48,644 nt of DNA from Nostoc sp. DedSLP01. GTDB lineage: Bacteria > Cyanobacteriota > Cyanobacteriia > Cyanobacteriales > Nostocaceae. The notes beneath the pieces were generated by a model. That model saw only the letters and a list, made by a program, of their open reading frames with translations. It was not told the DNA's origin and did not search any database. The stretch covers positions 1 to 48,644 of the forward strand of contig JAVRCJ020000015.1 of NCBI GenBank assembly GCA_034530875.2, read 5' to 3'. The position numbers and the translations under genes were made by a program. This document shows, in pieces, positions 35,024 through 42,508 of the stretch. How positions within the stretch are numbered: position 1 is the stretch's first letter; the number at the start of each line of letters is the position of its first letter.

Positions 35024-36160
35024 TTATTCCCTTTCACTTGTCTGCCCCTCCACCCTTCTTGGCAAGCGAAACCAAAATCTAGAACCACCTTCTGCGCGGG
35101 GTGAATAACCAATACTACCTCCCCAACGTTCTACTGTGATTCGGCAAAAATAAAGACCTAGACCTGCTCTGCCTGATTTATCTTTGCCTTGGGAAAACTT
35201 TTGAAATAAATTTTTAACCATTTCTGGTGCTACGCCAGAACCGCGATCGTCTAGGTTAACTAAAACATATTCTCCATCCAGTTGCAGACCAATAGTCACA
35301 GCAGAATTTGGAAAACTGTAACGATAAGCATTTTCTAGTAGATTAGAAATCACTCTATCTAAACGAGATTTTTCTGCTATAACTGTGCAGTCTATTGCCG
35401 TGTCAATTTGGGTAGCAAGCTCTAATTGTACATTTTTTAATGAAAAATTAGGCTTTAAAAACTCAATTACCTCTTGTATGGAATTTAAAATATTGGGTGC
35501 ATTTTGAATATCAATATTAGGATTTTCTAAAGACGTCAACTCAGCAGAAAAAATATCTAAAATATCCTTAATGAGCATTTCTTGTTTCCAGCATTGCTGT
35601 ATACCTAATTCTAAATATCCTTTCCCTTTGGGTGTTAAATTTTCAAACTCTAGAAGTGAAAAACAGCTAGTTATAGCACTCAGTTGTCCTGCTATATCAT
35701 GCATAATACAATGCAGTAAAACATCTTTTTTTTGATTATCTTTCAGCAATTGGTGATAAATTAACTCATATTCTCTACCTTTTTGTATTAAATATTGTTT
35801 ATTTTGATAAGTTTCTTCTAGAAGTTTAATTAACAAAATTTTTTTGCGATCGAGTAAAATTGCATAAGCTTCAAATTGATATTCTTTGCCAGTGTTATCT
35901 ACTTCAGTCCAAAAACCAGAACTGAGTTTTTTTCTACTATTATTTATCCAAAATTCTTCAGCATCAATTAAAAAGTTATTTAAAAAACAAAATTTTTCTT
36001 CAGGGATTGATATATTCATCCCTGAAGTTAATTGACGAGCGCAAAATTGATTTAACCAATCAGGTGTATTACCAATTATTTTAAATAAACCTGTATTAAT
36101 ATACTCTAACGTGAGAATATTTAAAGCAGCCAGTACATCACTTGTCATAAACCCATTCAT
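35024..36160 (-). CDS. Cytoplasmic sensor histidine kinase
   Basis: H-box MHDIAGQL, N-box NLLENAYRYS, G1 DDRGSGV, F LFQKF, G2 GLGLYFC; no TM. Confidence 0.9.
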   Translation of the reverse strand: MNGFMTSDVLAALNILTLEYINTGLFKIIGNTPDWLNQFCARQLTSGMNISIPEEKFCFLNNFLIDAEEFWINNSRKKLSSGFWTEVDNTGKEYQFEAYAILLDRKKILLIKLLEETYQNKQYLIQKGREYELIYHQLLKDNQKKDVLLHCIMHDIAGQLSAITSCFSLLEFENLTPKGKGYLELGIQQCWKQEMLIKDILDIFSAELTSLENPNIDIQNAPNILNSIQEVIEFLKPNFSLKNVQLELATQIDTAIDCTVIAEKSRLDRVISNLLENAYRYSFPNSAVTIGLQLDGEYVLVNLDDRGSGVAPEMVKNLFQKFSQGKDKSGRAGLGLYFCRITVERWGGSIGYSPRAEGGSRFWFRLPRRVEGQTSERE

Positions 36161-36195
36161 ATTAAATATTGATAATTAATTTTATTGTCAACTTA

Positions 36196-36594
36196 CTAAT
36201 ATAAATTTTTATTTGATTTTTCTTGTAACAAACTCAGTTCGTTAGCTTCTTGTTGAGTAGTCAAGAGATGATTTTCATCAAAACTACTATCTAAGAATAA
36301 TACCCAATCTCCTTCTTCAGTAGAGAATATATGAATATCTACACAAATGCCATACTCTGTTTTGATAAATGGTAGAAATAGGGAATCATCATCTAGTGGT
36401 AGTAAACCTTCTAGAAAGGTAACCTGCTGTTTGATATTTTCTGCTTTATTAAGGTTAATAATTCCATATTTTGCTAATTTACCACCCCATTGCAATAGGC
36501 TACCATCTTTCTTAACCAATAGATAGGCAAGAGAACGCTCCACTGTTAAAAACTTTAAAAGATAGGCAATCACAGAAGCAGGGACATCTAGCAT
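36196..36594 (-). CDS. Hypothetical protein (possible PAS-like fold), coupled to the GTPase
   Basis: 132 aa; ATG abuts the GTPase stop (TAAATG). Confidence 0.7.
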   Translation of the reverse strand: MLDVPASVIAYLLKFLTVERSLAYLLVKKDGSLLQWGGKLAKYGIINLNKAENIKQQVTFLEGLLPLDDDSLFLPFIKTEYGICVDIHIFSTEEGDWVLFLDSSFDENHLLTTQQEANELSLLQEKSNKNLY

Positions 36595-37095
36595 TTAGGA
36601 AACCAATATTTTTTCAGCAAGAGTTTGAAAAACTTCTTCTACACCAGTTCCATCTTTAGCACTTGTTTTAATCACAGTCCAACCCTTTTGTAGAACCTCA
36701 TCTATTTCAGTAGATTCAATTTCCCATTCATCTGTGAGATCGGATTTGTTCATCACCAAAATAAATGGAACTTTCCCAATAGCCTCTTCTACTCTTGTTT
36801 GCAGATCGAAAGCTTTGTCTAAGGTATTATGCCTTGTACCATCTACGACTAATAAATAACCAGCGGAACCTCGTAAATAAGACATTCTTAGTGTTTGAAA
36901 ATCGTCTTCTCCATAAAGATCCCAAAGAATAAGGTTTAATTGTTTTTCTTGAATATCAATAGTTTTTTTATCAATCTTGACGCCCACAGTTGTATGGTAT
37001 TTTTCAGAAAAAATACTATGTACGAACCTCGACACTAAACTGGTTTTACCTGTAGCAAATGCACCTATCATACAAATTTTTTTTTGGACGGTCAT
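36595..37095 (-). CDS. Stand-alone Rab-like small GTPase (prokaryotic Ras superfamily, Rup-type)
   Basis: G1 GAFATGKT, G2 YHTTVG, G3 WDLYGE, G4 NKSD, G5 SAK; Rab-like YLRGSAGYLLVVD. Confidence 0.93.
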   Translation of the reverse strand: MTVQKKICMIGAFATGKTSLVSRFVHSIFSEKYHTTVGVKIDKKTIDIQEKQLNLILWDLYGEDDFQTLRMSYLRGSAGYLLVVDGTRHNTLDKAFDLQTRVEEAIGKVPFILVMNKSDLTDEWEIESTEIDEVLQKGWTVIKTSAKDGTGVEEVFQTLAEKILVS

Positions 37096-37109
37096 AAATT
37101 GAGATAAGA

Positions 37110-38945
37110 TTAATCAGATTTCGGAGTTAGAAATATTTTGAAAGATACTCTACGACTACTAGCACTTTGAGATTCTGATTTGGCTGCTGGCTGCAAAGGT
37201 TGGCTAGAACTTACACCGATCGCCTTAATTTGTTTTGTATTGATTCCTTGGGCTTTTAAATAAGATAAAATCTTTTCACTGCGGGCTTGGCTGAGGAATA
37301 GATTTGTTTGTTCTGTTCCAGTAGTATTAGTATGCCCAATAATTTGAATCTGCACGTCTTTACTCAAATATTTAGCAATATCTAAAAACTTGCGTATTAA
37401 TAGGGCTAAATTAGATAGTTTGCTAGCTTCGCCAGAATTGAATTCAGTAGTGCCTTCTGAAAAAAACACTCTTTGTTGTTCTATTTGTTTTTTATATGCC
37501 TCCAATTGGCTAAGCTCTATTTCTATAAGATTTTTATCTTGGTATTCACTAATACCTGGAATAAAAGGCCATAGTTTTCTGGCTTCTAAAATCCATTGAC
37601 GAGGTGCATAACCAGTTGCACTCAGCAAACCCTTTTTATTAACTTGTAATGATACTGTTGGCAGTGGACGTAATAATTCTTTAACTCTTTTGGCAGTAAA
37701 TTGTGGTTCCAAAGAAAGATAAGGTTGCCAGTGACTAATTACTTGTTTGGGATTGAGATTTGTTTTTTCTATAAGTGTATTGGGATCTACTGCTAAGGGA
37801 TCGCGCATTCCCCAAATAAAGTATTTGCCAAAACTTTGTTTGGAGTTAGTGACAACAATTCCAGGCTGGGAGTTGAGCTTTTGCAGATAGGATTGCCAGC
37901 GAAGTTGTTCTCTAATAGTAAAAAAGCCCCAAGTTCCAAAAGCGATCGCAATTGCACCTAAGAAAATCCACGCATAAGTATAATTTTTTTTAGCCGCAGA
38001 TTTATACTGAACTACCAAGCAAGCTTCTAGGTCGGGTTTGCTTAGTTCAAATGGTTCTGTATCTCCGGCAAAATTTTTAATTTCTTGACCGAACTTGAGG
38101 TGAATTTTTTCAATTGCTTCTTGTAAAACTAACCTTAATTCTTGAGGAGGATTTCCCCGAATCATGGCTGCTATTAAGGCTTGCGGCCCTTGTTCAATCC
38201 AAATTGTGACTTCTCCAAAGCGTAAACTTTTTATCCCATCTCCTTGTTGGACGCTGAACGAATCTTTGATAAAATCCTGAATAGCTGTCAACATAGCAGC
38301 TACTAAATCTGGATCGTGAGCCGCAATCTGTTTCATTACTATATGTTGAAGTAATAATCCAGATTCTTTATGAATCAGAAATATTTGTTCAACTCGATAA
38401 ATTAGCGTTCGTAGCAGTACAATTTCCGCAAATGATTTTCCCGTGCGTTGCGCTTCTAGCCTCCACTGAAAACTTTGTGGAGACAAACTATGTTCTAAGG
38501 TTTGATTCAGAGATTGAGTCATTTGCTCAAGAGCCGTAGCAATTGCCTTACGAGTAGCCGGTCCAATAACTGGAAATAATGCTTCTGTAAGCACATTATG
38601 GTCTTGGTTAACAGAAACTTGAATGGCTTCTTCAACAGTTGCTACCATTACTTCTCCAAGTTGTTTATCTTGCTTTGAACGCAAGATCACAGCTTCTGGA
38701 AGCATTTTGCTAATATCTTCTGGTTGAATCTCAGGATTTTCTAGACGCTGATAAAGTTTTTGCAGTTTAGTTGGCTCAATATCTAGCAGCAAACTACGGA
38801 GTATAGTTAATTCATCCTGAATTTCTGAGATTTGGCTGTTGTTCAATCCTTCAGGAGATACTTTTGGTATTTGATTCATTGAAGATTCATTCATTACCAA
38901 AATCTCCCAATACATACTCTTTTTGAAGTAACATTTTGCTGCCAA
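37110..38945 (-). CDS. Trans-envelope protein: helical N-terminus, longin/roadblock-like domain, TM, C-terminal OmpA-like domain
   Basis: YRVEQIFLIHKESGLLL..DLVAAMLTAIQDF; TM YAWIFLGAIAIAFGTWGFF; IIGHTNTTG..NLFLSQARS..RRVSF; start may be ATG at 38894. Confidence 0.85.
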   Translation of the reverse strand: MAAKCYFKKSMYWEILVMNESSMNQIPKVSPEGLNNSQISEIQDELTILRSLLLDIEPTKLQKLYQRLENPEIQPEDISKMLPEAVILRSKQDKQLGEVMVATVEEAIQVSVNQDHNVLTEALFPVIGPATRKAIATALEQMTQSLNQTLEHSLSPQSFQWRLEAQRTGKSFAEIVLLRTLIYRVEQIFLIHKESGLLLQHIVMKQIAAHDPDLVAAMLTAIQDFIKDSFSVQQGDGIKSLRFGEVTIWIEQGPQALIAAMIRGNPPQELRLVLQEAIEKIHLKFGQEIKNFAGDTEPFELSKPDLEACLVVQYKSAAKKNYTYAWIFLGAIAIAFGTWGFFTIREQLRWQSYLQKLNSQPGIVVTNSKQSFGKYFIWGMRDPLAVDPNTLIEKTNLNPKQVISHWQPYLSLEPQFTAKRVKELLRPLPTVSLQVNKKGLLSATGYAPRQWILEARKLWPFIPGISEYQDKNLIEIELSQLEAYKKQIEQQRVFFSEGTTEFNSGEASKLSNLALLIRKFLDIAKYLSKDVQIQIIGHTNTTGTEQTNLFLSQARSEKILSYLKAQGINTKQIKAIGVSSSQPLQPAAKSESQSASSRRVSFKIFLTPKSD

Positions 38946-39000
38946 CAGAAAAAATGCACTGACGCTGGAATAATTAAGTTTGTGCTTTTCAATTCTGGAT

Positions 39001-39609
39001 TTAAGATTTGTGTTCTGCGTTCAGCCGGATGCCTAATTCTGTAAACATAGCTGCAAGTTGAGAACGGTCTGTTTTTTCTGTACGAAGCTCTTTAACTTCA
39101 CGTTCTAGTAAAGCTAGAATCTCCTGAGATTTTTGTTGAATATCGTTTTGTAAGCTTTTGGATTGGTTGAGAATCTGCTCGCGTAGCTCTCTTTGACTAG
39201 TAATACTTTGTTCGTCAAATTGAGTAAATTTCTTTTCTAAACTTGTAGTTATATTTTTATTTTGTTCTGCAAATTCTCTCACCTGAGCATCACGTTCTAT
39301 CTGTTCATTTTTTAGTCGCTGTGTTAAAGAATCAATTTCTTGTTTAATATAGTTTTCTAAAGTATCTAACCGTTTTCTTGTCTCATCTTGCACGTTACCT
39401 AATTCTTTAATTATACGTTCCTCTAAGCGGCTAAATCTTTTTTCAATATCCCGAACTTGATTGCCAAAAAGAATTTCTCTCACTTTATCTAAACTTCTAC
39501 TTTCGCTAAGACTATGACTATTAAATTGCAACTCATTTATTGATGAATTCGATGCTTGTTGTTCTGAATTGAATGAATTATGATTGATGTATTCTTCAGG
39601 TAGGTTCAT
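39001..39609 (-). CDS. Coiled-coil protein
   Basis: LDKVREILFGNQ then heptad-rich E/K/Q/L sequence; AAGGA upstream. Confidence 0.8.
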   Translation of the reverse strand: MNLPEEYINHNSFNSEQQASNSSINELQFNSHSLSESRSLDKVREILFGNQVRDIEKRFSRLEERIIKELGNVQDETRKRLDTLENYIKQEIDSLTQRLKNEQIERDAQVREFAEQNKNITTSLEKKFTQFDEQSITSQRELREQILNQSKSLQNDIQQKSQEILALLEREVKELRTEKTDRSQLAAMFTELGIRLNAEHKS

Positions 39610-41131: not shown

Positions 41132-42508
41132 ATGGCATTTATTTTCGGCAAAACAACTGCTGATAATCTTTCTGGGACTTCGGGAAATGACACGATAGTT
41201 GGTTGGGCTAATGGTGGTAATGCCAATAGTCCCTCCGGTAACGACACCTTGAATGGTGCAGCTGGTAACGATTCTCTTGCAGGAGGGACGGCAAACGACA
41301 GTCTAATTGGTGGCGCAGGAAATGACACACTTAATGGCGGTAGAGGAAACGACACTTTAATTGGTAATGCGGGTGCTGACATTTTCAAAGGCAGTCAGGG
41401 TAGCGACAGCATTAATGGCGCAGATGGTATTGATACCGCAGACTACAGCCAACTAAATCAAAGCATTATCTTGTCAAAGGTTGGAACCATTGAAAAAGCT
41501 GGCGGTTCGGAGCAAGACCAACTTTTTAGAATAGAAAGGATTATTGCTAATCCTAATGTTGCTAACAACACTATAGATGCATCATCATCTTTGTCTGGGG
41601 TATTTATCACCGTTAACCTGCAAACTGGAAGTTTAGCTGCCAATAACGTTCCTGGTTTCGGAACATTGTCATTCACTGCAATCAACTTTGATAATGTTGT
41701 CGGCACAAATGCAAGTGACAGAATTACTGGCGATAACCAAAGTAACCGATTATCCGGTAACGGTGGCAATGACACACTTAATGGAGGCGCAGGTACTGAC
41801 ACCTTGAATGGGGGAACAGGCAATGACACTTACATTATTGACGGTGCTGCTGACACCATTATCGAAGCTGCTAATTCAGGCACAGATACCGTCCGGTCTT
41901 CTATCACCTACACACTCGCTGCCAATGTAGAGGATCTGAGGCTAACAGGAACTAGTGCCATCAATGGGACTGGTAACAATCTTAACAACCTACTTTTTGG
42001 TAATACTGCCAACAATACTCTCAGTGGTAAAGCAGGCAATGACACCCTAGACGGTAATTTAGGCAATGATATTCTCAATGGTGAGGATGGCAATGATAGT
42101 CTACAGGGCGGGCCTGGTAATGATAAACTCAATGGAGGATCTGGAAACGATATCCTAATAGGTGTTTTCCCTGATAACGTACTTCCACCAGGATTAAACG
42201 AAAGCGATACCCTGACTGGTGGGCTTGGGCTAGATAGATTTATTTTGGGAGACAGTGTAAATGTTTTCTACGACGATAACAACACTGCGAATCCTGGTTT
42301 TGGAGATTTGGCTGTTATTACTGACTTCAACTCTAGTGAAGATCTAATTCAACTCAAAGGATCTACACAGGACTACCGCTTAGAAGTTGTTGGCAGTAAC
42401 ACGCGAATATTCTTAGACAAATTAGGATCGGAGCCAGATGAAATCATAGGTATTCTCCAAGGGACAACCAATCTCACACTTGAGAGTGGCAACTTCCTTT
42501 TCTTTTAG
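41132..42508 (+). CDS. RTX-type calcium-binding repeat protein
   Basis: Many GGxGNDxLx nonapeptides; no signal peptide; AGGAG RBS. Confidence 0.93.

Follow-up and report, generated by a model that had tools for sequence, protein, structure and literature searches.

The five minus-strand genes at positions 35024..39609 of a 48,644-nucleotide stretch of Nostoc sp. DedSLP01 DNA (contig JAVRCJ020000015.1 of assembly GCA_034530875.2, referred to hereafter as the window) are, as judged from their sequences, a Nostoc-type copy of the Group 1 Rup GTPase system (Wuichet and Sogaard-Andersen, Genome Biol Evol 7:57; PMC4316618). As a gene cluster this is no novelty, the system having been known from genomes for a decade (2014 catalogue); what we add are fold assignments, a Gln-bearing helix common to three domain variants and an origin for the fifth gene, and no new kind of system. 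We propose that the cassette acts as an envelope-to-cytoplasm switch, in which a longin domain would load the GTPase, the GTPase would dock on the Gln helix, the kinase would change its activity and the same contact would trigger hydrolysis—a scheme that we hold about as firmly as we doubt it.

In the catalogue (PMC4316618), the Group 1 Rups are bacterial GTPases close to Rab/Ran/Ras/Rho that lack the Gln of the G3 motif. Beside them it places a coiled-coil gene, a gene encoding a DUF, a membrane helix and an OmpA domain, and an output enzyme with an invariant Gln in its N-terminal region, a residue that the authors propose is donated in trans; the envelope-to-output hypothesis is already stated there for this gene set. 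The window has a single-domain Ras-superfamily GTPase with eukaryote-like G1–G5 motifs and no G3 Gln, adjacent genes for a cytoplasmic coiled-coil protein (DUFY) and for a DUFX protein with membrane helix and OmpA domain, and an output kinase whose N-terminal Gln126 (conserved in 84 of 86 sequences) would be the invariant output Gln of the catalogue. Nostoc loci with the same layout carry the Group 1 label in Table S2 of that paper, where the 27 Group 1 rows include Nostoc punctiforme Npun_F1891 and PCC 7120 all3030; both share the genes and gene order of the cassette, and the N. punctiforme Rup is likewise 166 amino acids (aa) long. The available passages and table rows give no fold for DUFX or for the output N-terminus and, unlike the locus described here, neither two distinct Gln domains nor a free-standing fifth gene. 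The initial annotation was therefore right to place the GTPase in the Rup class but understated the case, since the whole gene set had already been described as the Group 1 neighbourhood. Its remark that the class lacks a demonstrated function agrees with our literature search, which was limited to openly licensed papers and found neither an experimental study of a Rup nor an experimental test of any Rup cassette. Dong et al. 2007 is cited for transcription of the N. punctiforme gene.

Neighbourhood conservation had been named as a check on the initial annotation, and the gene set is indeed strongly co-conserved. Three scans fetched 227 loci, 187 with distinct GTPases and 138 of these with enough flanking sequence; in this best-hit, Nostocales-heavy sample, some loci of which also went into building the profiles, Rup is accompanied by the coiled-coil gene in 130/138 loci, by the gene for the longin-region membrane protein in 131/138, by the N-terminal domain of the kinase (domain B) in 124/138 and by the domain that makes up the fifth gene product (domain A) in 88/138. 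At least one of A and B stands beside Rup in 137/138 loci (75 with both, 49 with B only, 13 with A only). In 121 genomes drawn evenly from the window's family, among which kin are not independent, the association recurs: Rup is present in 67 (60 of the window's subtype, counted as rows of at least 188 bits), B in 56, A in 51 and both in 47, all B- and A-positive genomes are among the 67, and the 54 genomes without Rup include none with A and none with B. The longin-region gene was found in 66 of 401 genomes across the phylum, and the cassette extends to Acidobacteria, Bacteroidota, Desulfobacterota, Nitrospirota and other phyla; by estimate, ~2500 stretches of a species-level genome collection match the Group 1 Rup motifs. 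In the 'longer' homologue search, scoring was limited to 8000 candidates. Within the Nostoc sp. DedSLP01 genome the cassette is single-copy, and its closest relatives are Nostoc loci whose GTPases are 80–85% identical.

The GTPase carries the motifs GAFATGKT (G1), Thr36 (G2), DLYGE (G3, without Gln), NKSD (G4) and SAK (G5), and its best solved relatives are Rab23, Sec4 and Rab1 (E ~1e-24). At the positions that we take to be Ras Gly12, Tyr32 and Gln61, its homologues have Phe (108/115), Tyr (115/115) and Glu (91/115; Glu63 in Rup). This combination of Phe, invariant Tyr and Glu fits an amide provided in trans without an arginine finger; a classical arginine finger would fit poorly, and a Rap-like route with the amide coming from a partner is plausible by analogy. 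In the precedent, the Asn thumb of Rap1GAP serves Rap by a route that dispenses with an arginine finger (PMC2265111), and Rup resembles Rap1 in lacking a cis Gln, in keeping the Tyr32 equivalent and in having a candidate amide on a partner helix; the likeness is an analogy, the partner here being a PAS-helix domain.

Three better-known classes were considered for the GTPase and rejected. Rabs have a WDTAGQE-type G3 with a catalytic Gln and a C-terminal Cys motif for geranylgeranylation; aligned with Rab23, the Rup protein reads WDLYGED, without the G3 Gln, and it ends at residue 166 without a Cys. MglA does not fit because the G3 is neither TVPGQ nor GTPGQ and none of the five proteins has a Robl_LC7 Pfam match, nor does Roco (Roc fused to COR, usually with LRR), the gene being a stand-alone 166-aa open reading frame (ORF). 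Elsewhere in the genome, four long ORFs (1015–1288 aa; C4, C7, C12 and C23) contain Ras-like domains, one of them two, and are probably Roco-type. As systems, MglA/MglB and the actinobacterial conservon resemble the cassette in that a roadblock/longin-type partner accompanies a small GTPase, and the conservon has a histidine kinase as well; the cassette differs from them in its DLYGE G3, in the lack of a stand-alone MglB gene in the cluster and in a helix order that matches longin structures.

A second cyanobacterial Rup subtype, which also lacks the G3 Gln, occurs in L228–L231 and L233–L242 (e.g., L229:4765–12931) and comprises a coiled-coil gene, a 724–982-aa longin–BON–OmpA protein and a 174–190-aa Rup whose G3 reads D[LI]EG followed by His, Gln, Ser or Arg. 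It is often followed by PAS kinases or cyclases that begin with a QxxNE domain, and some genomes hold both subtypes.

The longin-like, transmembrane and OmpA architecture that had been read into the second protein is upheld by an AlphaFold2 model, structure searches and hydropathy (residue numbers follow the 594-aa form from ATG 38894, the start from which its N-terminus aligns best). In the model (29-row alignment, mean predicted local distance difference test score (pLDDT) 74, with the N-terminal 60 residues and linkers poor), residues 167–293 are predicted to adopt the order bb-a-bbb-a-a, i.e., two strands, a helix, three strands and two helices, which is the order that defines the longin in PMC3747258; the cytoplasmic domain is thus predicted to have a longin fold. 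The structure search (VIA-align) ranked Sec22 first (Z 13.1, root-mean-square deviation (rmsd) 2.8, 123 aligned), followed by a CPLANE subunit (Z 12.9), VAMP7 (12.7), synbindin (12.0), TRAPP (10.6), MON1A-CCZ1 (10.5) and a Lokiarchaeota longin (10.1), all at 7–13% identity; no roadblock structure is among the 50 matches listed, which does not exclude that fold. The longin alignment gave no significant Pfam family (Fuz_longin_1 in only 2/100 members, E 0.015), and PDB sequence searches with the A, B and longin profiles returned nothing significant. Across 100 homologues, conservation within the longin peaks in strand 1 (0.92) and helix 1 (0.81), and helix 1, which holds invariant residues, is the element that serves as GTPase platform in longin/roadblock dimers (PMC3747258). 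That 2013 review states that prokaryotes have no longin domains; PMC10933270 reports longins in Asgard archaea, with GTPase genes generally not in operons with their regulators.

A predicted longin fold beside a Rab-like GTPase (Z 10.5–12.9) recalls the eukaryotic pairs Mon1-Ccz1/Rab7, TRAPP/Rab1 and Inturned-Fuzzy/Rab23 (PMC6864590, PMC3747258). Unlike those exchange factors, the longin here is predicted to lie within a single-pass, wall-binding protein and, unlike eukaryotic Rabs, Rup has neither the G3 Gln nor a prenylation Cys. The GTPase has Rab23 as its best solved match, and the second-best match of the longin is a subunit of CPLANE, to which the Rab23 exchange factor belongs; other Rabs and longins score almost equally well, so this pairing is probably coincidence.

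A single predicted membrane helix follows the longin region: the best 19-residue hydropathy window (1.79) falls at the same position in 28/29 homologues and is helical in the model too. For the periplasmic part, the secondary structure of the model predicts a pair of BON-like repeats plus an OmpA-like domain whose fold was matched at Z 15.0; Pfam BON scored in distant paralogues only. The top Foldseek match, Rv0899 (PDB 2l26; 272 columns, E 5.3e-8), shares this BON-plus-OmpA architecture but differs in domain arrangement (rmsd 19.8) and covers nothing of the cytoplasmic longin part. In OmpA-like domains an Asp/Arg pair binds the diaminopimelate of peptidoglycan, and the Arg (Arg538) is kept in 29/29 homologues, but Asn523 takes the place of the Asp in the window's protein. 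A 1203-aa longin–BON–OmpA paralogue stands at L232:6420–10028 with no Rup or coiled-coil gene within the 15 kb fetched, and second copies of this kind are common in one sampled cyanobacterial genus.

On the cytoplasmic side, domain B was modelled (AlphaFold2 pLDDT 93.6) as a PAS fold with a long helix that bears Gln126 and Arg129, a near-invariant QxxR pair (each 84/86). Its best structural match is middling (Z 8.7), in a match list dominated by PAS and LOV domains, and we regard it as a predicted PAS fold. Domain A has PAS/HNOBA features in the ESM Atlas (0.87–0.91) and ends in a QQxxN helix, in which Gln115 is kept in 69/70 and Asn118 in 63/70 sequences. The third variant, domain C of the second-subtype outputs, matches A at 94.8% by profile and a solved PAS structure at E 0.11 only, and ends in QxxNE (Gln 15/16, Asn 15/16). 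As a control, ordinary PAS-end motifs in the genome had Gln plus Asn or Arg in the same register in 3/99 cases. Pfam scans of all members of the A and B alignments gave no significant family, and in a mixed alignment the A rows collapsed onto the B half. A and B are found fused to kinases, hybrid kinases, class III cyclases, SpoIIE, HD and sigma-54 activators, and natural A–B tandem fusions in 10 loci support a pairing of the two. The near-constant presence of at least one of them beside Rup, together with these interchangeable fused outputs, makes A and B a likely modular input plug for GTPase docking; the Gln helix, which lies directly upstream of the kinase H-box helix (His154), may be the docking place itself. 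One locus (L244:5582–14555, the same as L134) holds a tandem cassette duplication, in which one GTPase is followed by an A-cyclase and the other by a B-kinase, and suggests that either domain alone can serve as output.

The output protein of the window can be called a histidine kinase by its phospho-acceptor His and ATP-binding boxes: the His and the N, G1 and G2 boxes are intact, and among kinase homologues His154 is kept in 79/84, Asn277 in 83/84 and Asp305 in 83/84. Acidobacterial relatives append receiver and Hpt domains to the kinase, whose target in Nostoc must be encoded outside the cassette.

The 132-aa fifth gene is likely what remained after the loss of a cyclase that in many cases was dead beforehand. 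The tree of 70 A domains (136 columns, midpoint-rooted, with many open forks) groups the 17 free Nostocales rows in one clade (100/99), which is nested in a clade of 25 rows (97/92); the other eight rows carry a ~200-residue tail, assigned to the class III cyclases by Pfam or alignment in seven and by length only in one. When 13 cyclase tails were aligned and scored for what we take to be the class III catalytic motifs, four kept all motif residues and nine lacked at least one. The dN/dS ratio of the 132-aa gene (nonsynonymous to synonymous substitution; 0.18–0.35 in nine non-independent comparisons) is similar to that of its neighbours and indicates purifying selection; after cyclase loss, such values argue for a function retained within domain A. 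We rejected the ORF's being a pseudogene on these values, on its intact length (~130 aa) across several Nostocales families and on the preservation of Gln115 and Asn118.

We envisage the following sequence of events. The state of the envelope, likely wall integrity or tension, would be sensed by the predicted wall-binding membrane protein, whose predicted longin domain, as a dimer, may load Rup with GTP, either as an exchange factor or as a platform. Rup-GTP could then dock on the QxxR/QQxxN helix behind the kinase PAS domain and alter kinase activity, and the helix amide would complete the Rup active site, such that the effector doubles as GTPase-activating protein (GAP) in the manner of the Asn thumb for Rap. 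The 132-aa protein may be a second docking subunit, pairing with the kinase PAS domain or competing for the GTPase, and the coiled-coil protein a scaffold. The gene set, its conservation, the GTPase and kinase motifs and the missing G3 Gln come from sequence and tools, the longin, BON/OmpA and PAS folds from prediction. Paired covariation (mutual information with average product correction, 86–164 paired loci, effective 54–103, against five shuffled pairings) was uninformative, with top scores inside the shuffled range for 6/7 pairs; the exception, one longin–B pair (z 8.5 vs 5.2–6.4 shuffled), involves poorly conserved columns and is not trusted. A bolder form of the proposal, which we put forward as doubtful, is a complete Rab-style cycle in one operon, with a wall-anchored true longin as exchange factor, PAS-plus-QxxN/R-helix domains as effector-GAPs for any signalling enzyme, and the 132-aa protein as a dedicated GAP or co-receptor stripped down by cyclase loss. 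Because one putative operon encodes a predicted longin, its GTPase and small soluble domains that are candidate effectors or GAPs, both nucleotide exchange by the longin and the supply of Gln in trans could be tested with four purified proteins and a few point mutants.

Several observations weigh against the proposed switch. A and B are collinear but match weakly by profile (25%, E 7.7e-4) and show no similarity by BLAST, and Gln alone occupies the equivalent position after 27/99 ordinary PAS-end motifs. The usual Asp of the OmpA-like domain is replaced by Asn523 (Asp in 18/29 homologues), the kinase H-box is atypical (HisKA only at E 0.026, below cut-off), and longin domains also have GTPase-free roles and act as GAPs in some complexes (PMC10933270). 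A is absent from 9/56 B-positive family genomes and is to that extent dispensable. The phosphorelay into which the initial annotation had the GTPase feed lacks a partner: the surroundings of 68 Nostocales loci share no recurrent response regulator, and a receiver-domain profile from 13 hybrid relatives singled out no response regulator among its 198 genome matches.

Some of these points favour a different wiring of the same parts, in which the longin ends the signal, as GAP or terminator, in the way MglB does for MglA, or GTP hydrolysis by Rup relies on its own Glu63, leaving the Gln helix as a non-catalytic effector surface. The frequency of Gln in PAS-following helices and the conserved Glu at the Gln61 position agree with it, as do the GAP role open to roadblock/longin proteins (PMC10933270) and the raised intrinsic activity of Ras Q61E cited in PMC2987813; that last value conflicts with PMC6813200, which puts Q61E at about one-eighth of wild type, and the second Rup subtype has no Glu after DxxG while its partners keep the QxxN helix; we rate this wiring as unlikely. 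Distinctly unlikely, in our estimate, is the polarity or landmark role suggested in the initial annotation; in such a role, a pole or septum would be marked by the wall-anchored protein, which would localize the GTPase in MglA style for motility or differentiation of filaments. A predicted peptidoglycan-binding anchor with longin and small GTPase does resemble MglA/MglB logic, and the cassette is common in Nostocales; against this stand its absence from about half of the 121 family genomes, its spread over many phyla, outputs that are interchangeable and include second-messenger enzymes and transcription activators, a G3 that is not MglA-type, and the lack of any recurrent motility or division gene near the 68 Nostocales loci. 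The signalling reading of that annotation is supported; the polarity or filament-specific part is not.

More improbable still is inside-out signalling, in which a cytoplasmic ligand would be sensed by the PAS domains and their state relayed by the GTPase to the membrane protein, altering envelope tethering: the PAS fold often binds ligands, and the membrane protein has no recognized sensory domain beyond its BON-like and OmpA-like parts, yet A and B serve as the input end of many different enzymes, an arrangement more simply explained by control of the enzyme through the GTPase, and A persists under selection where its cyclase is dead or lost. The least likely alternative in our view is a four-gene working system with the 132-aa gene as a decaying, functionless cyclase-fusion remnant. 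The nesting of the 132-aa rows among A-cyclase fusions, the damaged cyclase tails and the occasional loss of A would suit this, but the gene's neighbour-like dN/dS and the preservation of its length, Gln115 and Asn118 across the 17-row clade speak against it.

Five co-oriented genes of the sizes first annotated were found as minus-strand ORFs, and the reported intergenic gaps of 55, 14, 0 and 35 bp are reproduced from the ORF coordinates with a TTG start for the OmpA protein; a start at ATG 38894 would make the first gap 106 bp. Pfam assigned OmpA (E 1.6e-13), Ras (E 5.8e-34) and HATPase_c (E 9.8e-23), and neither the coiled-coil protein nor the 132-aa protein matched a family above cut-off. 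Residues 37–198 of the coiled-coil protein contain no Pro and have a hydrophobic period of 3.6–3.67.

Features of the Rup cassette and the basis on which each was assigned (window positions).
Feature	Position	Strand	Basis
Coiled-coil protein (DUFY of the Group 1 Rup system), 202 aa	39001..39609	-	Hydrophobic period and lack of Pro; no Pfam match above cut-off
Trans-envelope protein (DUFX:OmpA), 611 aa from TTG or 594 aa from ATG 38894	37110..38945	-	Pfam, alignment, AlphaFold2
Predicted cytoplasmic longin domain, residues 167–293 of the 594-aa form	38016..38396	-	AlphaFold2 and structure search
Single predicted transmembrane helix, residues 309–327	37914..37970	-	Hydropathy and helix in model
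Periplasmic part: two predicted BON-like repeats and OmpA-like peptidoglycan-binding domain	37125..37913	-	Model, Foldseek
Group 1 Rup small GTPase, 166 aa	36595..37095	-	Pfam Ras, G motifs
Free-standing PAS-like domain A, 132 aa, with C-terminal QQxxN helix (Gln115, Asn118)	36196..36594	-	ESM Atlas, profiles
Kinase N-terminal domain B, residues 5–150, predicted PAS fold and long helix with Gln126 and Arg129	35711..36148	-	AlphaFold2
Soluble histidine kinase, 378 aa: domain B, His154 H-box, HATPase_c	35024..36160	-	Pfam, conserved motifs

Promoter and terminator scans stayed at chance level (26 vs 22.7 and 3 vs 3.8, respectively), and the GC content of 35024–39609 is 34.5% vs 40.9% genome-wide. 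Upstream of the cassette, on the opposite strand at 41132–42508, lies a 458-aa glycine/aspartate repeat protein that resembles calcium-binding RTX-type repeats. At ~30 of the 68 Nostocales loci the cassette stands beside an ABC transporter set, a possible universal-stress-type protein, a membrane transporter and a ~1080-aa protein (labelled from sequence appearance); in the window and eight close relatives a chromate transporter adjoins it instead. Four loci (L061, L124, L195 and L182) are rearranged, such that Rup and domain A face the coiled-coil and membrane protein genes on the opposite strand.

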